Origin: Squalus acanthias
Taxonomy: Eukaryota
DNA: 64,000 nt
NCBI GenBank assembly: GCA_030390025.1
Contig: CM059431.1
Coordinates: 144,276,001-144,340,000 of the forward strand
Direction: 5' to 3'
Made by a program: the position numbers and the translations under genes. The notes under the pieces are model-generated. The model was not told where the DNA came from. It did not search any database and was given only the letters and a program-made list of their open reading frames with translations. Shown one piece after another: positions 3,302 through 50,390 of the stretch; position 1 is the first letter of the stretch; each line of letters opens with the position of its first letter.

Positions 3302-5796
3302 ATGATTGATGAGCGGAAGATTTGCTACCCAATTATTATTCTCATTGGTGTCCCAGGTAAGTCTTTCCAACCCGTTATTGCTTTGTATGGAGCGATTTAG
3401 ACTGTATTATCGCTATTGGTGCCTGCCGGATGATGAGGCGTTTCTCAGTGTTTTTTATAAAGTTGTCTCTTCACTTTCCTTTGGTTGTTCACTGCCCACC
3501 AGTCGCAGTCTTCTCTGTTCTTGGTAAGATGGGCCTTGAATTTAAGCAGCAACTTATCGCAAATCGAATCGCTCCACAACTAACCAATGACTTTTATTGT
3601 CTGACAAGTAAAGAGACAGATGGGCCGGTCGTTCACTGGTGACCGGACTTATCATCACTACTGAGCCCCAAGCAGTCTCCAGATTATATATCGGGACTGG
3701 TGTTAGATCACCAATGTGTGCTCGTGGATTACCCTGAAAATATCAGAGTGCTAATATTTTACTCATATGCTATAGTAAGAACAGCTCTTATTTAAAGCCG
3801 CGGTAATGTTGACCTTTCAGGTTAATTAAATGTTTGAAGCATTCTCACTTGTGCTGTACATCTCCAAAATGGACTGTGAATACCTGAGTCAGCCCCAACA
3901 TTCCCGGTCCAATCACACTGCGCGCCACAATCGGAACTCTTTCCTTCAAAATGGTCCTGACGGTTAAAATGTGTAGTCAGAATATAAAGTATAAACAAAT
4001 GATATCGTTCAGAATCATGTAACATTTTATCACATGATCTACTGTGGCTGTAGCTGTAGAATCCTGTTCCCCTTTCCTGCTTCCACTCTCTACAATTCAG
4101 ACTGACACGGGCTAGGTGGTGAAGATATATATTGTGGTGAGGTGGTTAATTTCTCCCGAAATCTTTCTTCGCCTTTTAATGTTACTTCCTCCTTTTTATA
4201 TTTTCTGATCCAGTTCAATCCGATGTGTCCGTATTTATTCCCATCTGCCTCCGTTAACCTTTATACGCTCGTAGTTTCATTTATTTTATATTCTCTACAG
4301 ATCCCCACACCACCGTCGATCATCTGCAAGCCTTTTCACTATTAAAATACGTTTCTCTATTTTGCAATGTGTCAGCCGCACTCTTGCCTCTGCGTCAGAA
4401 GGTTTCATGCAGGCTACCACTCCAATGCAGTACTGAGGAATGGGCCGGTTTTCGGATGAAATACTAAACCGAGGCCGCGTAACATATCTCAGGTGGATGT
4501 GAAAGATACAATGGCACTGTTTCGAAGTAGAGCAGGGGAGTGCTCCCCGGTTTCCTGGCCAATATTTATCCCTCAGCCAACATCACTGAAAGAGATTATC
4601 TGGTCATTATCAGATTGCGGTTTGAAGATCTTGGCTGCTGTGTTTTTAACATTAGAATATCAAAAATGTAAAACGTGGCTACAAAGCGCTTTGGGACGTC
4701 CTGAGATCATCAAAGGTTCTTTATCAATGCAAGTGTTTCTATATTCTAACAGGTTAGTTATAAAAATATCGCTCAGAAATTAAAGAGCAATTGTCCTCAC
4801 GGGATGGAAGAAATTAAACTTTTAGTTGCACAAACATTCTGTTTGATTGTAATTTTGTGGTTTAACATAATTCTGCCGTATCTTTCTCTCTTTGTTCCAG
4901 TTAACCTGGTGGCGATCCCCATCCTGTGCCGAGGAAAGTGCGGTCTCTCCCAATGTGTCACTCGCTACCTGGTGGCGATGGCAGTAGCGGACCTAATGGC
5001 GGTGATCATTGAAGTCCTGTTGTACCGGATTAATGACACCTATTGGATATTTCCATCCCTGGAGCATGCTCCATTCTGTCTTGTCCATTATGTCCTGTGT
5101 CACGTGACAGTGGATTGTTCTGTTTGGCTCACCGTCGCTTTCACTTTCGATCGCTTTGTAGCCATTTGCTGCCCGAAGTTTAAGTTGAAATATTGCATCC
5201 CGAAAATTGCGGCTGTAGTTATTACCACAATATGTCTGGGGTTTTGTTTAAAGAACATCCCCTTTTATTTATTGTATATGGGATCAAGTTATTATGTTCG
5301 CGGGAGTCTGAGGTGTTTGGGGAAACTAGCCCTTCCCATGTCGGAAGCGTTTGAGGGGTTTTACTGTTTGGACCGTCTGTTGACGCCGCTGCTTGCTTTC
5401 TTTCTCATTTTGCTCCTTAATGCTCTGACAGTCAGCCAGATTATTGCAGCCAGTAGAGTCCGCAGGGGGCTCAGGACCCGGAGTAATGGCGAGAAGTAGA
5501 GAGATCCAGAGATGGAGAACCGGAGACAATCCATCATTCTGCTCTTCACCCTGTCGAGCGGTTTTATTCTCTGTTGGATGACAACTACTCTGGTCTTCAT
5601 TCTCAGCCGATGTCTTTACACAGACCTGGAAACGTCTATTCGTCTTATTCAGGCAAAAAATGTTGGCACAGCAATTCAGCTTTTCAGCTGCTGCACAAAC
5701 ACCTTCATTTATGGAGTGACCCAGACGAAATTCAGAGAGCATTTGAGGAGCGCGGTGGTGTACCTTGTTACTCTCGTTGCTAAATTAGTTCGATAA
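3302..5796 (+). pseudogene. GPR139/GPR142-like class A GPCR, probable pseudogene (exon 1 3302-3356, exon 2 4901-5796, in-frame TAG at 5497-5499)
   Basis: Exon 1 reads MIDERKICYPIIILIGVP-G|GTAAGT. The acceptor ctctctttgttccag|TTAAC is phase 1 and gives VNLVAIPILCRGKCGLS. Motifs AMAVADL, TFDRFVAICCP and CCTNTFIY are present. The ORF stops at GEK* and resumes in frame as RDPEMENRRQSIILLF. Confidence 0.85.
4378..4740 (+). mobile_element. Deu-domain SINE (SacSINE1/AmnSINE1-like), internally deleted, in the GPCR intron
   Basis: CTCAGGTGGATGTGAAAGAT...GGCACTGTTTCGAAG...CCTGGCCAATATTTATCCCTCA core and an L2-type tail AAAGCGCTTTGGGACGTCCTGAG...AATGCAAGT. Similar copies lie at 41370-41800, 48750-49127 and 59590-59870. 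Confidence 0.75.
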
Positions 5797-11815: not shown

Positions 11816-11989
11816 GTCAGGATAACGTGTGACCTGGACAGAAACTTGGAGGTGGTGGTGTTCCCATGCGCCTGCTCCCCTTTTACTTTAAGTGGTAGAA
11901 GTCGCGGGTTTTCAGATGCTGTTGAAGAAGAAATGCCGATTTGTTGCAGTGCATCTTGCAGATGGTATAGATTGCAGCCATGTTGGGCT

Positions 11990-13259
11990 AATCTAACATA
12001 AATGGTGGTTACTCTAATCTAACATTACTGGTGGAGAGGATAAACTAACATTACTTGGTGGTGACTCTACTCCAGCATTACTCGTGGTGAACCTACTCTA
12101 ACATTACTGGTGGTGAACCTACGCTAACATTACTGGTGGTGATTCTACTCTAACATTACTGGTGGTGAACCTACTCTTACATTACTGGTGGTGACCCTAC
12201 TCTAACATTACTGGTTTTGACTCTATATCAACATTACTGGTGGGGACCCTACCCTAACATTACTGGTGGTGACCCTACTCTTGAATTACTGGTGGAGACC
12301 CTACTGTAACATTACTGGTGGTGACTCTATTCTAACATTAATAGTGGAGATCCTACACTAACATTACTGGTGGAGACCCTATTCTAACATTATTGGAGAT
12401 GACATTAACTAACATTACTATGGATGACTCTGTTCTAACATTTATGTTAATGACCCTACTGTATAATTTATGGCGATGACTTGGAACAACATTAATTCTT
12501 TTGATTCAGCTCTAACATTAGAAGTGATGATACTACTCTACAATTGCTGGTGGTGACTCTACTTTAATGCAACTGTCTGTGACTCTAAGCTAACATTACT
12601 GATTGAGGCACTGATTTAACATTACTGGTGCTGACTTTATTCTAACATTGCTGATTTTTACCATACTCCATCATAACTGGCTATCACACTATTTTAACAT
12701 TACTGGTGGTGACTCTACTCTAACATTACTGGTGGTGACCCTACTCTAACATTGCTGGTGTTGACTCTACTCCAACATTACAGGTGGTGACGCTACTCTA
12801 GAACTATTGGTGGAGACCCTACTCTAACATTACTAATGGTGGCGCTATTCTAACATTAATGGTGCTGACCCTACTCTAACATTACTGGTTGTGAACCTGC
12901 TCTAGCATTACTGCTGGTGAATCTACTCTAATATTACTGATGGTGGCCCTACTCTAACATTAATGGTGGAGATCCTACACTAAAATTATTGGTGGAGACC
13001 CTATTCTAACATTATTGGGGATGACACTACACTAACATTACTATGGATGACTCTTTTCTAACATTTGTGTTAATGACCCTACTGTATAATTTATTGCGAT
13101 GACTTGGATACAACATTAATGCTTTTGATTCAGCTCTAGCATTAGAAGTGATGACAAGATTATTGGTGGTGACCCTACTCTAACATTACTGTTGGTGACC
13201 CTACTCTAACATTACTGATGATGACTCTACTCTAACATTACTGATGGTGACTCTAATCT
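11990..13259. repeat. 26-bp minisatellite, second array (CTCTAACATTACTGGTGGTGACCCTA orientation)
   Basis: Same unit as 1005-2862, about 48 copies. Contains a duplicated ~200-bp block (12337-12530 and 12958-13154). Confidence 0.95.
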
Positions 13260-25588: not shown

Positions 25589-26490
25589 TCATTTAATAAA
25601 TTTGACTATTACTGTCAGCTGATATTTCGCCGTATTCTTCAACTCCTCCCTGAATGTTCTCTGGGTCACGACATAAATACACGTGTTTGTGCAGCAGCTC
25701 AATAGGAGAAGCATATGTCCGGATTCCTGAAGGATAAAGACTGGGTCGTTGTAACCTGTATAGACATAAGTGCCTGTGATTCGGTAATAGAGTTGATGTA
25801 CAGTGTATGTCGCCCATAACATGACGAAACTTCCGGATACACTGAAGAGTAAAATGATGGATTTTTTCCGGTTCTCCAACTCAGGATCACCTTTATGTTC
25901 AGCAGTGTTGATGCCCCTCAATGCTCGTCGGATGCTATTGGAGGCTAATATGTGTCTTACTGTCAGTACATTGAACAGTAATATAAGGAAAATTGCAAGA
26001 CACGGTGTTAAAATATGATTACTCCAGGAATATGCTATCCACGTGGGTAATGTATAAAAGTTGGATTTGAGGCCAAAGAACATTGGGATGTTGTTAATGA
26101 AATACAAAGGTTCAAGTACAAAGTACCATGGGATATTTTGCAAACAGCTCAGAACAAACACCGTGCCTACAATCGGAGCTGCCGTTTTCTCGGTGCAATA
26201 TGCTCTTTTCAGCATCTGGCAACAAATAGCAACGAATCGATCAAAGGCTAAAGCGACTGTTAACCAGACAGAGCCGTTTCTGCAAGCATAAACTAGGACC
26301 GTTTTGAGACGGCACGCCGGAGTAACGGACAAGGCACTAACTGGATAGTAAATGCCAATGATCCGGTTCAATATCACACCGGTGATAACGACCAGTAGAT
26401 CCGCGACAGCCATGGCCACCAGATAGAGAGTGATGCATTTGGAGAGACTGCACTTTCCCCGGCACTGGATGACAATTGCCATTATGTTAA
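25589..26490 (-). CDS. GPR139/GPR142-like GPCR, main coding exon (open); exon 1 not located
   Basis: Acceptor ttccctctttcttgcag|TTAAC. Open frame of about 300 codons with AMAVADL, AFDRFVAICC, DPELENRKKSIILLF and CCTNTCIY. The ORF-track N-terminus MISLFLA is intronic. Confidence 0.8.
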
Positions 26491-27944
26491 CTGCAAGAAA
26501 GAGGGAAATCATTGACTAGACTCCCAGTACAAAGCATCAGGATTTTGTCTGAATTTCACAGTTTCATTACTGCCTCTGTGGAAGGAATCGAAACGCCCGC
26601 TTTGTGGGGACTGAGGATAAATGTAACCTAACGCTCCGGGCGTAAAACGCACCGCATCCAGAAACCGCCAGTTTTACAGCGCCCAATATTAACTCCATTC
26701 ATTCAATGGAGAGTAAAACCAACGTTGTTCCCGATCCCATCAGTTTTCCAACGGACTGGTTGGGTTCGTTTCAAAATAAATCTAAATAATAATTAAAGTG
26801 TGCATTTGAAAAAAAATCATAGCAGGTGACTGGTAAACGTGAAATAATATCTAAAATGGAAAATAAGTGGAGGCGGAAGGATAAAATGAAACTAATTTAA
26901 ATGGAGGTGGAAACTTGTAATCGGTACCTATGGTGTCCTATCACCTGCCCTAGAACCTGCCCACTTGTAGGCAGTGATTCTCCCGGTGAAGGCATGTCCT
27001 GTAGTGTAATCTGCACCATATGTGTATGCCAATCTCTGAGCAGGTGCTTGATAGGGTTAGATCCAGTGCTGTTTCGATTGGGTTCAAGGCACAAATGAAC
27101 GTTGGTGCAGCTAATAAATGTGACCCTCGGGTCAGCGGTCGGAGCAGAGCAAACTTAGAGGTGTGAGAAGCGGAAAGTGAAAGTCAGAGTAGGTAAGGCC
27201 GCAGTAATGAGTCAGTGAAGCGGAAGTAGGGGAGTGAAGGAGGAAGGAAGAACAAGCTGGGAGCGAGGCGGGGTAGTATTTTGAAGCATCAGGCACAGAA
27301 ACGTGAAAGAGCTAGAATTTTACGTTTGCCATGGGCAAAGAGGTAAAACAAACTGTGCCGTAACTCGGATTCCAACTGAAGTGGCTGCGACAAAAACATA
27401 GGAACCTAAGCCCCAAACAGAGCAGAAAGTGTCCAGGATCCATCCCTGGCCTGAGCTGTGTTAGTCGATTACAGCCATGTGTTAAAGAGCAGAAATAGTG
27501 CACGAAGGTCCCATGTTCCCTGGGCGGATCCGAGTGGGCTTCACAGTTTGTTGCGTTTGTGAGGGAGGGACGGGTCTGTGTGTGTGAGACAGGTGGGTCC
27601 GTGTGGTAGGGGTTAGGGTGGGTATGGGATTTCCATTTTGGGGAGGAGGGTGGATTCTTGTGATGGTGGGCCGAGTCCTTGTGCGGGGAGAGGCGTGTGT
27701 TTTGGGGATGAGGCGGGTCTATTTGGAGGGGGAGAGGCACTTGTGATTGAGGGAGGGGCTGATTTGTGTGCGGAGGGGCAGGCCGGTGTGGGGACGTGTC
27801 TATGTGACAGGAGTCTGTGTTGGTGGAGGGAGTGGGCCTGATGGTTGTGGCCTGGAGGGGAGGGGCTGGTGAGTGGGAAAGGGCGGGTTTGTGTAGGGGA
27901 GGAGCAGGATAGTGTGTGGGCAGGAGCGGGTTGGTAGGTTGAGA

Positions 27945-30265
27945 GGGTCCAGGTTCCATTCGCAACTTATTATGTTAGCTGATCTCACACGGTATGATAC
28001 TGTGCCCCTATAGACAAGCAAGGACCCAGATTTGTTAAGGGGCCTATGTTAGCTCACCTCACCCAGCGTGGTATTGATCAGCAAACATATCTGGGAGGCA
28101 TTAGGATTCAACCACGGCTTGTGCTGTGTTAGCTTAACACAACCAGAGTGGTTCAGCAATATTAAGCAGAAGGGGCCAGGCTCCATCCCCGGCTTGTACT
28201 GAATTAGCTGATCTCACCCAGTATGGGACTGAGTTCCATACAGATCATGAAGGACCCTGGCTCCAAGCCTGCCATATGCTGTTAGCTAATTACAACCTGT
28301 GTGGTACTGAGCCCCACATGAAGCAGGAAGGGTCCAGGTTTTGTTCATGGCCTTTGCGAGACCAGACTCACTGAACAGAAAGTGTCTAATTGCCATCCCC
28401 GGCCTGTGCTGCGTTAGCTGATCCCACTTAGTATGGTGCTGAACCCGATGCAGAGATGGGAGTGCCCAGTTTCCATCCCCGTTAGCTGTTAGCTCAGCTC
28501 AACCGGTATGGTATTTAGCCCCATACAGAGCTCGGAGGCCCCAGATTCTAAACCTCGGATGTGCTGATTTATAATCCCCGGGGTGGTACTGAGCTCCATA
28601 CGGAGCATGAAGGGCCAAAGATCGATTAGAGCTTTGCGTTGTTCGCTGCTCTCACTTCATGTGGTACAGAGCCTCACACAGAGGAGGAAGGACCCAGGTT
28701 CCACCCCTGCCATGTGTTGTTAACTAATCACAACTAGTGTGGTATTAAGCCCCAGGTGGAGCAGGAGGGACCCAGGTTCCACCCCTGCCATGTCTTGTTA
28801 ACTAATCACAACTAGTGTGGTATTAAGCCCCAGGTGGAGCAGGAGGGACCCAGGTTCCACCCCTGCCATGTGCTGTTCGCTAATCACAACCAGTGTGGTA
28901 TTACGACCGAGGTGGAACAGGAAGGACCCAGGTTCCACCCCTGCCATGTGTTGTGAGCTAATCACAAGCAGCGTGGTATTAAGTCCCAGGTGTAGCAGGA
29001 AGTGTCCAGGTTCCACCTCTGCCATGTGTTGTTAGCTAATCACAACCAGTGTGGAATTAAGACCCAGGAGGAGCAGGAAGGACCCAGGTTCCACCCCTGC
29101 AATGTGTTGTTAGCTAATCACAACCAGCGTGGTATTAAGCCCCAGGTGGAGCAGGAAGGACTCAGGCTTCAATTACGGTCCATGCTGAATATGTTAATGA
29201 GACACACTCATTGTGCAAGAAGGGCACAGGCTCCAATCCCAATATGTGCTGAGTTAGTTAGTCCACTCTGTGTGCTACTGAGCCACATACAGAGTAGAGA
29301 GGAACCAGCACCCATCCACAGCCTGTCCTCGTTTAGCTGATTTAGTCCAGTGTACTACTGAGCCCCACACAGATAAGGAAGTGTCCAGGTTCCATCCCGA
29401 GCCTATGCTGCTAGCTCAGCTCTCCAGGCGTGGCACTGAACCCCATTCAAAGCTGGGAGGGAAAATAGTTCTTACCTCCGCCTGTGCTGAGTCAGTTGCT
29501 CCCTATCACAGATGTACTGAGATCCACACAGAGCAGCAAAGGCCCACTTTCCATTCGAGGCTTGTGCTGTTATCTGATCTCACTCCCTGTGATAATTAGC
29601 GCTCAACAGAGTAGAACGGGCCGAAGCTCTTTAACCGCCCTGTGCTGAGTTAATTGATCTCACCCAGTGTGGTTCTGAGCTCCACACTCAGCAGGACGAC
29701 CCAGGCTTCATTCCAGGCCTATTCATATTTTTTGTAATTGGTAAAACAAATTAGCAGAAAGGGCCGAGGTTGCAGACAGGACTGTCCTGTTAGTTCATCT
29801 CATCCGGTGTGGCACTGAGCAACAAAAGAGTAGAAAGTGTCCGGGTTCCATACACGGCCTGTGCTGAGGTACCTGATCTCATCCAGTGTGGAGCTTCACA
29901 AAGAGCAGAAAGGCCTAGGCGTCATTTGCTCCTTGTATGTTCGTTGATCTCACTCCGTGGGGCTATGAGCTCCAAACTGAGCAGAAATGACCTAGTTTCA
30001 TCCGACCTGTGCTGAGTTTGCTAATCTAAGACATTGTGGCACTGAGCCCCACACACAGATGGAATGGCCGAATCTCCATCCCGGCCCCTGCTGTTAGCTC
30101 GCCTAACCCTGCGTGGCAGTGAGGGCCTCACAGAACAGAAAAGACAAAGTTTCCAACCGAGGCCTGTGGTGAGTTAACTCATTTAACCCGGTGTGGTACT
30201 GTACCACACAGAGCAGGAACGGCCCCGGTTCCATTCACGGCCTGTTCTCCGTAATCTGATCTCAA
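27945..30265 (+). repeat. 78-bp tandem satellite (~30 units) with a B-box-like GGTTCCAYCCC; probably derived from a tRNA-SINE head
   Basis: GACCCAGGTT at 28691 and 28769 gives period 78. Unit TGTGGTATTAAGCCCCAGGTGGAGCAGGAGGGACCCAGGTTCCACCCCTGCCATGTGTTGTTAGCTAATCACAACCAG. An extra unit lies at ~27400-27490. Confidence 0.9.
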
Positions 30266-30545: not shown

Positions 30546-33500
30546 TGTCGTAAGAATGAGCCTTATGCGTGGTGAACTTAAAGTAAGCTTTAATCAACTA
30601 AAAAGGTGCTACATACAAAAGAGGTCTTACTCTATGCCTCTCCAGGATCCAACTGATCAGTCCAGTATTTATCCTGGACTAATCACAGGAAGTGATGCAA
30701 TAAAGTTCGAGTCACAGGAAGCTGTATTGTGTTACCACATTCTCCCCCCCCCCAAAAGATTAGGAGGCCGGGATGCTCCCTATATTTCGTAGCCGCTGGA
30801 CGAGGGAGAGCCGCACCCGTTTGGGTTCTCGTAGCGGTAGAGGGCCCCTAGCCCGTTTACCCGCCGCGGGGCGTGGACCAGAGTCCGAGTGATCCAGCCC
30901 GCTCTGTGAGGGGTCAGGACGATCCTGACTGTGTACTGGTGCCCGAACGGGTGTCGGGCAGGGCTGTGGCAGATCCGTTTCCGAGCGTACGGTACGGGGT
31001 GGATCGTGGCTGCGCGTGCGAGCCCCGACGGGCTCATAGTCAGTCTGCCCCAGGTCGGCACGCTGGAGTGAGATACCAGCCGGCGTCAGATCCAGATCGT
31101 GATGAGAGGCACCTGGCGAGCCCAGAGATGTGCCTGGTACAATATCATCCCCTGGTGTCCCTCTATGTTTCGGCGGGCAGGGAGCCAGATCCCGCAATGA
31201 CACGGTAGATTCCCGACCGTCAGGATACCGAATATAGGCGTAGGTAGGGTTGACGTCAGTGAGCTCAACTTCATCTACCAGGGGGTCATTCTTAGACGCC
31301 CGGACATATCTTCGGAGTAGCACTGGTCCCGGTGTAGTGAGCCACGACGGGAGAGATATCCCATAGGATGAGCGACGCTGAAATCGAAAAAACCGTTCAT
31401 GAGGCGTCGTATTTGTGGCGGTCGAAAGGAGGGACCGTGTGGAGTGTAATGCGTCTGGAAGTACTGCTTCCCATTGCTGGTTGGGTAGGCCCCGAGATCT
31501 CAAAGCCAGACGTACCGCATTCCAGATGATAGCGTTAAAACGCTCGACTTGCCCATCCCCGACCGGATGATAAGGCGTCGTTCTGCTGGCAGCAATACCC
31601 CGTTCCGAGAGATAGGCCTTGAGTTCTCCTGACATAAAAGAAGGGCCCCGATCCGAATGAACATAGGATGCCATGCCACAGAAAGCAAATACCTGCTCAA
31701 GGCAGCTGATAACCGTGGTCGTCAGCATATTGGGGCAGGGAAAGGCAAACGGAAAACGGGAATACTCATCGACCATGGTCAACAGATAAGTGTTGAGAGT
31801 TGAAGAGGGCAAAGGCCCCTTAAAATCGATGCTAAGCCGTTGCATTGGCTGGGTCGCATGTATGAGTATACCACCCGAGGGGCGGAAAAACTGAGGTTTC
31901 AATTCCGCACAGACTCTGCAGTCTGAGCACATCTTCTTTACATCCCCGGTAGAGAATGGGAGATTTCGGGACCGCACGAAGTGTAGCATGCGAGTAACGC
32001 CCGGATGACACAACCCATCATGGATGTCTACGAGCGTAGAGGGTGCCATGGCGGAGCAGAATGCTCGTGTGAGGGTTTCCGGAGCCACATTCTCCTTGCC
32101 AGGTCGATAGTGGATGGTGTAACCAAAAGAGGCCAATTCCAGCCGCCAAAGCTGGATTTTATTATTTTTAATTTTGGTCCGTTTTCGATTATCGAGCATG
32201 AAGGCGACCGATCGCTGGTCCGTGATTAAGGTAAAGTGCTGGCGAGCTAGGAGATGAGTCCACTTCCGTACTGCCTCTATGATGGCTGTAGCTTCTTTCT
32301 CGACTGGAGGATAATGTAGCTCAGCCCCTTGAAAAGTCCTGTACAAAAATGCCACCGGACGACCTTCCTGATTCAGAGTGGCCGAGATCGCCACCTCCGA
32401 GGCATCACACTCAACAACAAAAGGAAGACTCTCATCGATGGAGTGAAGAGCCGCTTTCTCCAACTGTTTTTTCAGGAAGTTAAAGGCTGCAACAGCCGCT
32501 GTGTCTAGTGGGAATGTGCTGGCCTTCAGTAGAGGTTGGATTCGGTCCGAGAAGTTAGGAATCCATTTAGCATAGTATGCAAACAGGCCGAGGGCCCGGC
32601 GCAAGGAGGCCGGATTCTTAGGTGGCGGGAGTTCTTGGAGTGGGCGAAGCCTTTCAGGGTCAGGTTTAATGATGCCATTGCCCACACAATAGCCAAGGAT
32701 GTTGATGGTTGGTTGTGACTCAATGGATTTAGCCGCATTTAATGTCAAATTACGGTGCTGGAGTGCATCCCAAAATCGTTGGAGATTGGCGTCATGTTCC
32801 CGCTGATTGCCACCTGCGACAGTAATATTGTCCAGATAAGGAAACGTATCCTTCAAGTCTTCCTGTTTGACCAGGTCATCCATTGCTCGCTGGAAGACAG
32901 CCACTCCATTAGTGACCCCAAAGGGGAGGCGACGAAATTGATACAGCCGTCCATTGGCTTCAAAGGCCGTATACTGCTTGTCTGAGACCTTCAAGGGGAC
33001 CTGATGATAGGCACTTTTCAGATCATATGTTGAGAACACCGTGTACTCAGCCAGTTTATTAACCATATCATCGATGCGCGGCAATGGGTATGCGTCCAAG
33101 TCCGTATATTGATTGATGGTCTGTGAATAGTCAATGCACAGCCGTTTCTTGTGAGGTTGTAGAGGGTTCTTAATAATAACGACCTGGGCGTGCCATGGCG
33201 ACGAACAAGGCTCGATGATATCCTCTGCTAAAAGCCGAGAAATCTCAGCCGCAATAAAAGACTGGTCTTCCTGACTGAAACGTCGTGACTTTGTTATAAT
33301 CGGTTTGCATCGAGGAGGGATACTGGTAAACAGTGAGGGTTCATCCAGTGAAGCTGCAGACAATGCACAGAACGGTAATCGAGGTCGTATATTAGAAATA
33401 GTGAGTTCAGGTTTGGATCCGCCGAACTCAATGGTGAGCTTCTTATGCTGCTTTTGAAAATCCAGCCCTAAGATAAGATCACTACACTAATCCTTGAGCA

Positions 33501-34988
33501 CCGAAAGCCGGGTGGAGGGATACCTGTGACCATTAAGTGTTATTTCAACCATACAAAAGCCAGAAATTCTGGTATTAAGTGATGACTGAGCCATCGCAAC
33601 TGCCTGGTCCGATGGGAATACATGTAGCTTTAACTCTTCAACAATCTGTTCCCTAATGAAACTATCAGTGCTACCTGAGTCAATTAAGGCATCTAAAGTA
33701 TGTCCATTAATTGATGCTTTTGTAGCTGCATGGAATAGGTTCTGAGGACAAGCAGCTGTAATTGGTGTCGTTGCACAAAGAGTGGCTGAAACTCTAGGTG
33801 TGTTTCTTCGAGAGGAAACCCGAGAGGAAGCACGATAGATGTTAGCCGGAACATCTTGATAGGCCCTTACCGGGGCAGTTCGGTAGGACTTAGCTTGATA
33901 AGCCCTTGTAGAGGCTCTTGATAGGCAAACCTTTGCAAAATGACCCTTTTTGTTGCAATGACTGCAAAACGGATTGCGAGCAGGGCAGAATTTCCGAGAG
34001 TGAAACTCATCACCACAAAAGAAGCATTTCTTAGATTGCCAAGAGGCTGCCACAGTGGGGTCATCATCCTCTTCATCAGTGAAGTCATCAGATTGATCGT
34101 CAGGGATAAAGTCCTCCCTAAAAGAGTTCACCTGTGGCCTCTTAAATTGCCTGACTGTAGTTAAGGCAGTAGACCGAGGTCTGGGCACTGTATAAAGGTC
34201 TGCATTTCTTTTTGCCAGATCTAGAGAGCAAGCCATGTCATAAGCTCTCAGAAGCTCAAGTGTCTTACTTTCCAGTAGACGCTGGCGTATAAATGGGGAG
34301 GCATGCCCGCAGATGAAAGCATCACGGATCATTTCTTCACGGTACAGCTCAGCTGAGGCCGCCTGAAAGTTACAGTCCATACTAAGTCTGCGAAGCTCTT
34401 GGAGGAATTTATCAATGGATTCCTCCGGCCTTTGTTGGGCTGTAGCTAGTAGATGTCTGGCATAGACCTCATTCGGTGTCTTAGTATATAGTCTCTTAAG
34501 CGTCCGAATTGCCTCCTCGTAACTGTCCCATTCCTCCACATACTGAAATACATTCGGGGTGACACAGTTGATGAGTATCTGCAACTTTGAGTCATCATCA
34601 GCCTTGCAATATTCCAGAAAATTGTCAAACGTGCGATACCAGTGTTTCCACACCTTACCGGCTGCTGGGGTGTTTGGGTCCAAGTCAAGACGCGATGGTT
34701 TAAGGATGTTTTCCATGATGGGTGATTCCCTGGATCCTTACTTCCGAGTTCGTCCAAAAAGTTTGAGTGCGAAGTTTTCCAAAGTTGATTAAATTGTCGT
34801 AAGAATGAGCCTTACGCGTGGTGAACTTAAAGTAAGCTTTAATCAACTAAAAAGGTGCTACATACAAAAGAGGTCTTACTCTATGCCTCTCCAGGATCCA
34901 ACTGATCAGTCCAGTATTTATCCTGGACTAATCACAGGAAGTGATGCAATAAAGTTCGAGTCGCAGGAAGCTGTATTGTGTTACCACA
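30546..34988 (-). mobile_element. Full-length Ty3/Gypsy LTR retrotransposon
   Basis: 194-bp LTRs at 30546-30739 and 34795-34988 (TG...CA, 2 differences seen). 5-bp TSD AATGC at 30541-30545 and 34989-34993. PPT at 30740-30753. Domain order gag-PR-RT-RH-IN. Confidence 0.98.
30760..34716 (-). pseudogene. Gag-Pol polyprotein of the Gypsy element, single frame broken by one TAG (33487-33489) in the protease
   Basis: Two CCHC knuckles (CFFCGDEFHSRKFC, CSHCNKKGHFAKVC); PR LIDSGS; RT LPFGVTNG and YLDN; RH ECDAS/EKEA/TDQ; IN HHCC plus IDFKG, HSDRG, QVERFN. 34716 and 33363 are in the same frame. Confidence 0.93.
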
Positions 34989-38594: not shown

Positions 38595-39530
38595 ACATCA
38601 GCTAACTGAGCACACATCGGGGACGGAGCCTGCTCTGTCTGGCTCAGTATCACACCAAGTGAGATCAAAAATTCAGCACAGATCTGTAATAAAGCCTGCG
38701 CCCAATCTGCTCAACCTGCGGCCCAATACCAAACGCGATCAGTTCAGTTAGCTCCGCACTGGCTCTTCCTGATCTGGGAAGGAGCTCATTACTACTCATT
38801 AGATAACAGCATACGCTGGGAAAGTAACATAGGCCCTTCTTGGCCTTTTATCGAACCAGCATCACACCGGATGAGATGAGCTAACAGCCCAGGCTGCGGG
38901 TGGACACTGGAGCCATACAGCTCTGAGTGGGCCTCGGTACCACAATGGTTGAGATCAGCTAACTGTACAAGCCGGGGATTGAACTCGGGCCCTCCCTGCT
39001 CTGTGAAAGTCTCAGTAACACAGAGGTCGAGGTCAGCTAACTATATAAGCCGGGGATGGAACTTGGGCCCTCCCTGCTCTGTGAACTTCTCAGTAACACA
39101 GAGGGTGAGATCAGGTAGTTCGGCACAGGGCGGGGATCATGCCAGGGCTCCTCCTTCTCCACGTTGGTCTAAGTAACAAGCATGGCAATGATGGAACCTT
39201 TGTCCTTCCCGTTCTGTTTGGAGCTCAGTACCATACTGGGTGATATCAGCTGAATCAGCACTGTCCGCGGCACGAACCCGGGCCCTATCTGCTCTGTTTG
39301 TGACTCCGTACAACACCTTGTGAAATCAGTTAAATTAGTATCGGAGGGGATTCCATGATGGGCTCATTATCACACTGGCTGGGATCAGTTAAGTCAGTAA
39401 AGGGCGTTATTGTATCCTGTCCTATTCATCTCCATGATGGGCTCAGTACCACACTGGGTGAGATCAGCTAATTCAGTACTTGCCGAGAATGGAGCCTGGG
39501 TCACTCCTGCTCTGTGTGGGTCAGTAATTC
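38595..39530 (-). repeat. 78-bp satellite, second array (~12 units), inverted relative to 27945-30265
   Basis: GAGATCAGCTAAC...GGGGATGGAACTTGGGCCCTCCCTGCTCTGTG...CTCAGTACCACAC is the reverse complement of the first array's unit. Confidence 0.88.
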
Positions 39531-44716: not shown

Positions 44717-46122
44717 CTATTCAGATTTTCTAACCAACCTTAGAATCAGTGTCCAGGGAGATTTCAACACATTCTTCAGCTCTAGTCTGAATTTCCTCTG
44801 GGTCGCTGCATAAATACACGGGTTTTGAAAACCACTTAAAAATTTTAACATGATTCCAGTTTCAGTGGCGATATATCCAGGGTCTGTGCGGTCACCTCGG
44901 TAATAAGTGGGGTTTGTCAGTCTGGTAGTTGTCAAAGTCACGGCGGCAGTCAGCCACAACAATATAAAACTGCCCGATACAGTGAACAGTAAAATTATGG
45001 ATTTCCTTCGGTTCCCCATCTCTGTATCGCTCTGATTTTGACTCCTGTATCCCCGGAGTCCCTTGCGGGCTCTGTTGGCCACTAATATACGTCTGACTGT
45101 CAAATAATTTAACAAGACAATTAAAGTTAAAGGAAGCCAAACGCCCCAGGCGCTGTGAAACCAGAGGTAGGCTACACCTGGAGGTGACGAAAAAAAAGCC
45201 ACACTGTTCTGGCAGCCCCACTGCACATTGTTAATTATTTGTTCAGGTTCAAAAGCAAAAAAAATGGGAATGTCCTTTAAAACGATTAGCACCGTGAACG
45301 TTGTTATAACCGCGGCCGCAGTTCTCTTGGTGCAATAATTTACTTTAAACTTCTGGCAGCAGATAACTACAAATCGATCAAATGTGAAGGAGACAGTGAA
45401 CCAAACAGACATATCGAGGTTGACAGCAGTCATGTATAGAATGAATTTACACCCGAGAGTGTGGGACAGGAATGAAAGTGGAAAGTGATAGCATAAAACA
45501 TGATACACTATTACATTGAAGATCATGATCAGTAGATCAGCTGTTGCCATGGCCACCATGTAGACAGAGATACACTTGGAAAGGCCGCAGTTTCCTCGGG
45601 AGAGAATCACAATTGTCACCAAGTTCGCTGTAAGAAAGAGGAGAAAAATAATGTTCCAGTGTCTGATTGAAATGTATATGGAGGTACCTGTCGAGAGCAT
45701 TTTAATTAGTCATGTGATTATCAACATGGAGCAGTGTGAGAACAGGATTAGTATTGGAGCCATTACCTGGGAAACCCACCCACACATTTTAATGAGTTGC
45801 TGCAGTGCTCACTCTGCACGGGGGGATAAGACGGTCCGGAAATCTGCTAAAATCCATGTATTGGAGCTTCAAAGAACATTGTAACATCAGAGAGGTTATC
45901 GGATTACACAGAACACGTGATTCACAAGTTGCTTCCGATATCTGCCACAGTGTAATGCTGACATCTGCAAAAAAAGTTACTTTCTCAAACAGGCTGCATG
46001 TACATGGATACAGTTAAACTCGATTAACAACAAACAGTTTACAATGTCTCACCAGGTACACCGAAGGCTGCGAGAATGGGGTAGTAAATCTCTTTTATCA
46101 GCAGCATCTCTAGTTGCCCCAT
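44717..46122 (-). CDS. GPR139/GPR142-like class A GPCR, apparently intact, 326 aa (exon 1 46122-46053, exon 2 45627-44717)
   Basis: Exon 1 MGQLEMLLIKEIYYPILAAFGVP-G|GTGAGA. Phase-1 acceptor ctcctctttcttacag|CGAAC. Motifs AMATADL, TFDRFVVICC, ECL2 QWGC and QNPCIY. Confidence 0.9.
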
Positions 46123-48009: not shown

Positions 48010-50390
48010 AAATTATGAGGGTCCTAGATAAATTAAATAGGAAGGGCCTATTTCATTTAGCAGGGAGGTCAATATCCAGAAGGCATCAATTGAAAGTAAT
48101 TGGTAGAATGATTAGAGGGGAGATGACGATAATCTTTTTCACCCCGACGGGGTCTGGAACTCACAGCCTGAAAGGACGGGAGAGGCAGAGACACTCATCA
48201 CATTTAAAAAGTACTTGGAAGTGGACTTGAAGTGCCGTAGCCTACAAGGCTACGGGCCAAAAGCTGGAAGGTGGGGTTAGGTAGTCTGGCACTTTCTCGG
48301 CCGGCACAGACACGATGGGTCGAAAGACCTCATTCTTTGCCATAAGTTTCTATATTCTATTATTCTATTCAAACTTTCGAGCCTGCTCCGACATTCAATA
48401 AAGTCATGGTTGATCTTCTACCTCAACTCCACCAGAATTCCCAAATCTCTTGGTTCCCTGAGTATCCAAAAACCTCTCTCAGCCTTGAATATAGTCAACA
48501 AAAGAGCATCCACAGTCCTCTGTGGTAGCGAACTCCAAAGATTCACAACCCTTTGAGTGAAGAAATCTCTCCTCCTCTCAGTCCGAAATGGCTGATCATT
48601 TATTCTAAGATTGCGACACCTAGTTATAGAGTCTCCAGCCAGGGGAAACAAACCCCTGCATGTACCGTCCCCTCATCCCAGGAATCAGTCTAGGGAACCT
48701 ATGTTGCACCCCATCCAAGGCTAGTGTATCCTTCCTTAGGTAAGGAAAGAAAGACTTGCATTTTTTTAACGTCAATTCACGTCCACCGGACGCCTCAAAT
48801 TGCTTTACAGTCAGTGAAGAATTTTGAAATGGAGTCACTGTTGTAATGTGGAAAACTCAGCAAGCTCCCACAACAGCAATTATCTGTGTTTGTAATGGTA
48901 GTACACCGGGGATGACTCCCTTACACTTTTTCGAAATAGTCCACCTGACAGGGCAGACGGGATCGCGGTTTAACGTCTCATCCGAAAGACGGCACTATCA
49001 GACAGTACAGCACTCCACTGGAGTGTCAGCCTAGCTTTATGTGCTCAAGTCCCTGGAGTGGGACTATGAACCCACAACCTTCATGACTCAAAGGCGAGTG
49101 TGATACCAACTGTGCCACAGCTGACACTGATCAAAATTGTACACAGTACTCAAGGTGTGGTCTCGCCAAGGTCCTATACAATTGCAGTAAGTCTTCTCTA
49201 ATCTTTTAGTCCAATCCTTTTGTAATGAAAGCTAACAAACCATTTGCTTTCCTAATTGTTTGCTGCATCTTCATGTTAACTTTCCGTGATTTGTGTACAA
49301 GAGCACCCAGGTCCCTCTGAATAACAACATTTCCCAATCTCCCACCATTTAAAAATATTCTGCTTTTCTATTGTTCCTACAAAAGCGGATAACTTCAGAT
49401 TTTCCACAGTGGATTCCATCTGCCATGCTCTTGTCCACTCACTTAACCTGTCGATATCCATTTGCAGCCTCTTTGCATCTTCCTCACAACTTACTTTCCC
49501 ACCTAGCTTTGTTTCATCAGCAACCTTGGTTACATTACACTCGTCCCCTCATCTAATCCATAGATATAGATTGTAAACAGCTGTGGCCAAGCATTGATCC
49601 TTGCGGCACCCCACAAGTTGCAGCCTGCCAATCTGACAATTACCTGGTTAATTCCTACTCTCTGTTTTCTGTCGGTTAAACAATCCTCTATCCATGTCAA
49701 TATATTACCCCAAACCCATGAGCCCTTGTCTTGCATTGCAAACCTTTATGTGGCAACTTATCGAATGCTCTTTGGAAATCCAAATTTACTACATCCACTG
49801 TTATCCCCTTAACTACTTTGTTAGTTACAACCTCAAAAAACTCTCTTAGATTTATCAAATACGGCTTGACATTCATAAATCCGTGTTCACTATGCCCAAT
49901 CATATTATGACTTTCTAAGTGCCCTGTTACCGAGTCCCAAATAATAAATTATTTGATTAGCATTTTCACTACTACTGTTGTCAGGCTAGCTGGCCTGTCG
50001 TGACCCATTTTCTCTCTTGCTCCTTTCTTGAATATCGGAGTTACTTTTGACACATTCCAATTGGTGGGGACCGTTATTGAAACTAGGAAATTCTGGAAGA
50101 CCAAAACCAATGCATCCAGTATCTCTCTGGCCACCTCTTTTAAAACGCTAGGTTGTAGGCCACAATGTCCAAGGGATTTGTCGGCTTTTAGTCCCATTAA
50201 TTTAACCACTTTATTTATTTATTAATTATAATTTCTTTAACTTTCTCATTCCCTCTAGCCCCGCGGTTCCCCACTATTTCCAGAATATTTTTTATGTCTT
50301 CTTCCATGAGGACAGATAGAAAGTATTTGTTCAATGTCTCTGCCATTTCCATATTACCCATTATAATTTCTCCTGTCCCTGTCGGTAATG
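48010..50390. mobile_element. Tail-to-tail CR1 fragments (+ 48010-48370; - 48370-50390), the latter containing a Deu-SINE at 48750-49127
   Basis: FFTQRVVNLWSSLP, LDFQRAFDKLPH, KADKSLG...VTPIFKKG. Confidence 0.85.

Follow-up and report, generated by a model that had tools for sequence, protein, structure and literature searches.

The stretch of DNA analyzed here (the window) comprises 64,000 nucleotides (nt) of the Squalus acanthias genome (assembly GCA_030390025.1, contig CM059431.1, positions 144,276,001 to 144,340,000 of the forward strand). It contains, on its minus strand, a whole long terminal repeat (LTR) retrotransposon for which an earlier note, made from the sequence letters alone, had proposed that reverse transcription is primed by the element's own LTR rather than by a tRNA. 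The parts of this element, numbered from the first letter of the window, are collected in Table 1. The element is a recently amplified, chromodomain-less LTR retrotransposon of the Ty3/Gypsy type (Metaviridae): it has direct LTRs with TG...CA termini, a target-site duplication, and a polypurine tract; its Pfam matches follow the order protease, reverse transcriptase, RNase H, integrase; and its closest solved structure is the Ty3 Gag-Pol (7q5b, E = 2.9e-57). No Chromo match was found in pol with Pfam, and the C-terminal 246 amino acids match no Pfam family at E values up to 10; therefore, as the earlier note had surmised, there is no chromodomain. The TAG codon that closes the gag frame lies within the protease domain (33489-33487) and is private to this copy, with a stop at that place in none of 26 other genomic copies. 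The window copy is therefore dead, while the family looks recently active.

Table 1. Parts of the Ty3/Gypsy retrotransposon in the window
Feature	Position	Strand	Remarks
Whole LTR retrotransposon, 4443 bp	30546..34988	-	Firm boundaries
Target duplication GCATT, 5 bp	34993-34989 and 30545-30541		Flanks the element
5' LTR, 194 bp	34795..34988	-	TG...CA ends
3' LTR, 194 bp	30546..30739	-	TG...CA ends; 2 mismatches to the 5' LTR
Polypurine tract GGGGGGGGGGAGAA	30740..30753	-	G-rich (G10AGAA); adjoins the 3' LTR
Proposed self-primer AGTTGATTAAA	34838..34848	-	Positions 141-151 of the 5' LTR
Predicted primer-binding site TTTAATCAACT	34783..34793	-	Exact complement of the LTR 11-mer
Single A	34794	-	Between the terminal CA of the LTR and TTTAATCAACT
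Predicted 5-bp hairpin	34825..34837	-	Directly 3' of the primer; GCUUA / UAAGU, one G-U pair
Predicted 7-bp hairpin	34798..34816	-	Towards the end of the LTR, 4 nt ahead of the primer-binding site
gag and start of protease	33487..34716	-	Two CCHC knuckles; closed by the in-frame TAG
Remaining protease, reverse transcriptase, RNase H, integrase	30760..33486	-	Same frame as gag; reverse transcriptase/RNase H portion open in this copy

On the minus strand, the 5' LTR ends in ...TTACGACA at 34795, followed by the A at 34794 and then by TTTAATCAACT (34793-34783). Within the same LTR, at 34848-34838, stands AGTTGATTAAA, of which this 11-mer is the exact reverse complement; the letters of AGTTGATTAAA recur at 30589-30599 within the 3' LTR. 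Pairing stops on both sides, as the earlier note had it, with T against T at 34849/34782 and G against A at 34837/34794, and the LTR 11-mer indeed opens within an initiator-like TTAGTT and closes with the hexamer ATTAAA. In the formation of LTRs, the end of the repeat is the start point of minus-strand synthesis. The 11-nt complement sits at the repeat end, that is, at the very place where minus-strand synthesis must have begun, which supports self-priming. A TGG triplet, the hallmark of tRNA-type priming sites, does occur 13 nt further on (34781-34779), but we rejected it as a priming mark because the repeat ends, and minus-strand synthesis starts, at 34795. Thus, the original statement that there is no TGG holds for the sequence adjoining the LTR but not for the wider surroundings. 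Among 695 internal 25-mers of the window element, none has an LTR complement of 11 nt or longer, the longest being 9 nt, and, by our own estimate, the chance of such a match between one fixed site and a 194-bp LTR is about 1e-4. The primer/site duplex is present in the minimum-energy fold predicted for the window RNA from the 11-mer onward (z = -2.8), where it encloses two local hairpins, one of them beside the site.

A search of the S. acanthias genome yielded 802 first-look candidates for further copies, and all 40 that were scored are about 100% identical across the LTR and the site. The 29 other copies that were retrieved are 97.2-98.8% identical to the window copy across 1589 nt, and both 11-mers are kept in 30 of 30 copies, the window copy counted. 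The family is young and large. A second LTR variant was observed in the public runs X1 and X2 (window 34793-34946); it carries 12 differences, and one base is inserted beside the intact 11-mer.

Relatives of the Pol protein are numerous, with hundreds at 55-80% identity, most of them encoded in a single gag-pol frame of about 1200 amino acids, and the hosts of those that are named include shrimp, nematode, copepod, cnidarians, tunicate, and mussel. The chromodomain family PF00385 was found in none of the 120 relatives listed. Metagenome contigs were scanned with an alignment of the Pol relatives, which returned 80 loci; among those with LTR pairs, the LTRs are 123-301 bp long, whereas no LTRs and no intact gag were found in the group at 42% identity (L083, L088, L089, and L093). 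An alignment of 11 sequences was converted to a covariance model, which gave 27 plus-strand matches at E <= 0.001, in 26 loci and the window. Together, these matches give 26 distinct instances, comprising the window and 25 relatives from metagenome contigs with a Pol identity of 42-74%. Matches to a covariance model are biased towards structure by construction, yet these are located where the site must be.

The relationship between the site and the LTR is apparent without any model. Among 13 elements (12 loci with LTR pairs and the window), 12 have a site after the LTR that matches their own LTR by an exact complement of 11-17 nt, and in each of these 12, none of the 695 internal controls has a match as long. 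The thirteenth element, L080, has a mutated 5' LTR and retains the complement in the 3' LTR alone. No tRNA-type TGG adjoins the LTR in the window or in any of 12 relatives, and the A-TTTA with which the window site opens recurs in 11 of the 12 relatives, the exception being L074, with TTTTCA. The letters vary between elements: between L048 and L051, for instance, a single-base difference in the LTR arm is accompanied by the matching difference in the site. We also located the N-terminus of gag by tblastn in 29 loci, 26 of which have at least 130 nt upstream; in 22 of these 26 loci, an exact complement of at least 10 nt lies just ahead of gag. As for the misses, L043 is an old copy with one mismatch, L080 is the element with the mutated 5' LTR, and in L073 the site lies beyond the search window, with 15 nt complementary by the covariance-model coordinates; L109 is considered below.

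Alignment of the two arms brings out the covariation. In the 16-bp helix of the 11-sequence alignment, 95.3% of the cells are paired, compared to 75.0% in shuffles (none of 500 shuffles equals the observed value), and sliding the partner by 1-3 columns reduces pairing to 23-50%. Eleven of the pairs in this helix have two-sided changes. The 121 cells of the 11-nt core are paired without exception, and 6 of the 11 core pairs show changes in both arms, with no one-sided change; RNAalifold predicts the helix unaided, with 8 compensatory pairs. The 26 instances hold 21 different cores of 11 nt; of their 286 core cells, 279 are Watson-Crick pairs, one is a G-U pair, and 6 are mismatches, all in visibly decayed copies. 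The near-absence of G-U pairs in the core, in which it differs from the local hairpin described below, fits a mechanism in which, cycle by cycle, one arm serves as the template of the other; we infer that an RNA structure maintained by selection only would tolerate G-U pairs, whereas templating by the primer would not. The duplex appears in the predicted minimum-energy fold in 21 of the 26 instances, and a local hairpin of the form RCCU...AGGY directly follows the core on its 3' side in 14 of the 26, the window included. The relative L074 (L074:1-144; 49% Pol identity) keeps a 14-nt complement between the site and the LTR, with the arm 77 nt from the LTR end and with neither TTAAA nor a poly(A)-like hexamer in it; therefore, the pairing is independent of that hexamer. 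Thus, the complementarity on which the earlier note built is kept across related families, not lost, and, taken together with the covariation and the lack of a tRNA-type TGG beside the LTR, it argues for the self-priming interpretation. The test that the earlier note had set, whether the site and the LTR motif co-vary in relatives, has a clearly positive outcome.

The individual positions of the core vary to very different degrees. Position +1 is A in 23 of the 26 instances and +2 is G in all 26; at the other end, A occupies +9 in 26, +10 in 25, and +11 in 26 of 26 instances. Between them, positions +3 to +8 are variable and co-vary with the site, and the core is followed by G or A and then by C, C, and T. 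Bases that are paired and nonetheless nearly invariant must, we infer, be under some constraint other than pairing. The core opens in an initiator-like manner (T, any base, A, G, T, T; TCAGT in two relatives), and the hexamer at positions +6 to +11 is ATTAAA in the majority of instances and AATAAA in five, the rest having weaker variants; among the elements with a weak variant, L033, L032, and L034 have a canonical or near-canonical hexamer further down the LTR. The idea, already present in the earlier note, that a single motif might act at once as start site, primer, and poly(A) signal is indirectly supported, in that +1, +2, and +9 to +11 hardly vary while +3 to +8 co-vary. The placement of the invariant A-G exactly 11 nt ahead of the duplex end, as would be expected of a Tf1-like RNA start, is no more than suggestive.

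Within the window genome, more divergent families were sought with a pattern search, which gave 45 matches compared to 29 with a reversed control, so that the matches are mostly background. No element of this kind was found in the 30 loci retrieved from this search; among four further places, one, L171 on contig C1637, represents a related family, now decayed, whose site is different (TTTAATCGACTTG...). At two positions, the LTR arm of L171 deviates from the complement of the site, leaving 7 consecutive pairs and more pairs broken by mismatches. The loci L159-L161 (contig C9), with an 11-nt palindromic pair around TTTAAA, were discarded as a palindromic satellite-like repeat, not an LTR element, that fits the search pattern by chance.

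To our knowledge, self-primed reverse transcription has been proven only for Tf1 of fission yeast, and assignments of self-priming from sequence have been confined to the Tf1/sushi chromoviruses and to a small number of groups in plants and fungi. In Tf1, the RNA's first 11 bases pair with the primer-binding site, RNase H cuts the RNA between bases 11 and 12, and the 5' region adopts a fold with three duplexes (PMC7175516, PMC10085805). We regard Tf1-like self-priming as the best explanation of the present observations, and as probably correct. In the mechanism that we propose, the 11-nt LTR stretch of the element's own RNA, located at or near the 5' end of the transcript, would fold onto the site one base past the LTR, and the element's RNase H would cut the RNA just past the duplex, after ...AAA. 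The freed 3' end would then be extended through the last 43 nt of the window LTR (20-77 nt across the elements). The primer-binding site of the new copy would be templated by the primer, which would keep the two arms perfectly complementary. The same stretch probably holds the transcription start, at the invariant, initiator-like A-G, and the poly(A) hexamer (ATTAAA or AATAAA), which in the 5' copy would be concealed in the duplex. The complementarity, its exact place at the LTR edge, its covariation across relatives, and the want of space for a second primer site are observed here, while cleavage, priming, the start of transcription, and a function in polyadenylation are deduced; for transcription to start within a few nucleotides of the core we would give even odds.

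Several observations weigh against this reading. In L109, the LTR motif is present but the site is wholly absent, and several old copies have mismatches in the pairing. In most relatives, the complementarity continues for 1-7 nt upstream of the core, with 98 of 127 extension cells paired; either the RNA begins before the invariant A-G, or these additional pairs serve some different purpose. In the window, a TATA-like ATAAATA precedes the 11-mer by 73 nt, and L171 has a similar box at a distance of 51 nt upstream. These boxes, if used, would place the start 20-45 nt upstream of the core, and the primer, unlike that of Tf1, would then not form the very 5' end of the transcript. With respect to the RNA start, polyadenylation, and the primer itself, none of the listed public runs with the element is recorded as RNA; one raw RNA run gave no reads on the element, and the pieces obtained from three contig runs are short, break off at the edges of the LTRs, and resemble DNA unitigs, with no starts or ends reported. 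Finally, a search of the genome for the tRNA family returned tandem arrays, and the resulting sample of host tRNAs (30 loci and the window) holds only 8 distinct sequences of 3 anticodon types, among which the best complement to the site is 5 nt; it is too small to serve as a test.

The explanation that competes best with self-priming is that the duplex is a regulatory RNA structure only, hiding the poly(A) hexamer of the 5' LTR or acting in packaging or in translation control, while another primer starts reverse transcription. Indeed, a poly(A)-type hexamer closes the LTR arm in nearly every case (mostly ATTAAA or AATAAA among the 26 instances), and the partner sequence of this arm exists only downstream of the 5' LTR, so that the duplex could tell the two LTR copies apart. 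Furthermore, the gag ATG, which in the window is 66 nt from the core, follows it by 4-24 nt in 14 relatives (4 nt in L051, L048, L050, L058, and L072; 6-7 nt in L056, L045, and L046). At 4-7 nt, the duplex would abut the start codon, which suggests a link between priming and translation of one RNA. The closeness of gag in the 14 relatives leaves no room for another primer site, however, and the 3' end of any primer would still have to pair at the LTR edge, which is the exact start of the duplex. The single G-U pair among the 286 core cells is unusual for a purely structural helix, and L074 keeps its complement without any hexamer to hide. An exclusively regulatory duplex thus appears unlikely; a regulatory role as such is compatible with priming.

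Somewhat less likely still is self-priming in trans or from the 3' end, whereby the 11-mer copy at the border of U3 and R, near the 3' end of the same RNA, or else a second packaged RNA would supply the primer in place of the 5' end. The upstream extension of the complementarity in most relatives would be accounted for in this way, given that, with a start at the A, the extension bases would exist only in the 3' copy of the RNA. Yet the predicted local fold of the 5' region already yields the duplex, and the 5' end is what is used in Tf1, the proven case (PMC7175516). Priming by a host RNA (a fragment of a tRNA, an internal half-tRNA as in copia, or another small RNA ending in ...UUAAA), with the match to the LTR being secondary, we consider very improbable. 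Priming by half-tRNAs does exist in other LTR elements (PMC6317226), and the host tRNA set was checked only in part. Nevertheless, the 26 instances come from hosts of several phyla and hold 21 cores, each matching its own LTR, so that the host RNA would have to co-vary with each element; moreover, no TGG adjoins the LTR, and the sampled tRNAs offer no complement beyond the 5 nt noted above. Chance can be dismissed: the 11-mer is AT-rich, but no control window reaches 11 nt, and the covariation in the 26 instances refutes a fortuitous match.

Self-priming of the Tf1/sushi group has been described as extending 'from yeast and vertebrates' (PMC6317226) or 'from fungi to vertebrates' (PMC4600332). 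The S. acanthias element shares with Tf1 and Tf2 of Schizosaccharomyces pombe, Tj1 of S. japonicus, and the rest of this group, including the sushi-type elements of vertebrates, a non-tRNA site that is complementary to the LTR (PMC7175516, PMC10085805, PMC4600332, PMC6317226). The core has the same length as the Tf1 self-primer, 11 nt; the pairing likewise ends at the point where cleavage would produce a 3' end that faces the LTR; and a small hairpin in the LTR end beside the site is common to both. However, Tf1/sushi is a sublineage of the chromoviruses, which are defined by the chromodomain (PMC10085805), and this domain is lacking in the present element and in its 120 listed relatives; therefore, the element is not a Tf1/sushi chromovirus. 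The clade to which it belongs is further distinguished by its spread across animal phyla, by single gag-pol frames of about 1200 amino acids, by LTRs of 123-301 bp, and by a primer that ends in a poly(A)-type hexamer and is followed by a local hairpin. With respect to the three-duplex 'pretzel' of Tf1, the fold predicted for the window RNA shows the primer/site duplex around two local hairpins.

Outside Tf1/sushi, self-priming has been predicted for chromoviruses of the Tcn1 clade and for the TAR copia elements of plants, which present the same signature, likewise known from sequence only, but belong to different clades or superfamilies and different hosts, none being an animal Gypsy clade that lacks the chromodomain (PMC6317226). 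The tRNA-primed Ty3 and Drosophila gypsy share the gene order and the LTR anatomy with the S. acanthias element but have a TGG... site complementary to the 3' end of a tRNA, of which there is none beside the LTR here.

The clade is probably Mag C, a metazoan-wide assemblage of similarly chromodomain-less Gypsy elements that includes SURL of sea urchins, with Jule of Xiphophorus in the Mag family; this assignment draws on host range, LTR length, and LTR ends. Jule is 4.8 kb long, with LTRs of 202 bp. SURL is named as a Mag C-clade element in the supplement of PMC6238403, and the Mag C elements, including those of vertebrates, have short LTRs, with a mean of 174 nt and the ends TGTNATRT...AYANAACA (Tables 1 and 3 of PMC3601003). 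The LTRs of the relatives end in ...ACAACA or ...ATAACA, whereas the window LTR, TGTGGTAA...TTACGACA, fits this consensus only partly. PMC3601003 mentions hairpin priming only for 'some chromoviruses'. We found no publication linking self-priming with Mag, the C-clade, SURL, or Jule in the full text searched, although key older papers are outside its coverage and an earlier mention is possible. Self-primed LTR retrotransposons as such are already known, and what appears to be new is their probable occurrence in an animal-wide clade of chromodomain-less Gypsy elements, possibly with a primer that is initiator and poly(A) signal as well.

Only tentatively would we extend the proposal to the entire chromodomain-less animal Gypsy clade, probably Mag C: all its members would self-prime with about 11 nt, in a motif that combines initiator, primer, and poly(A) signal, and the primer duplex would silence the signal in the 5' copy. 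If so, self-priming is no peculiarity of Tf1/sushi, being either ancestral in Gypsy elements or repeatedly evolved, and it occurs in animals much more widely than textbooks have it. Automatic annotation based on tRNA sites would, in that case, mislabel systematically a retrotransposon clade that is among the commonest in animals, and pipelines for LTR elements that require a tRNA site would need a check for self-complementarity. The question of whether hairpin priming or self-priming preceded tRNA priming, raised in PMC3601003, would be affected as well. The hundreds of near-identical copies in S. acanthias provide a natural system for mapping the RNA ends.

The element is located in a cluster of receptor genes. 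Three intronless open frames in the window, at 4750-5499 on the plus strand and at 25589-26515 and 44717-45709 on the minus strand, match seven-transmembrane receptors of the rhodopsin family (Pfam 7tm_1, E = 2e-10 to 2e-20). Tandem arrays with a period of 78 nt flank the neighborhood of the element at 28681-29166 (6.2 copies) and 38933-39114 (2.3 copies); by eye, their units look unrelated. A 26-nt satellite forms long arrays of up to 54 copies, in opposite orientations, at 1012-2810 and 11988-13259. ARAGORN additionally reports an unusually long, 96-nt tRNA-Arg(CCT)-like sequence at 48631-48726 on the minus strand, which may be a tRNA-derived repeat and not a gene.

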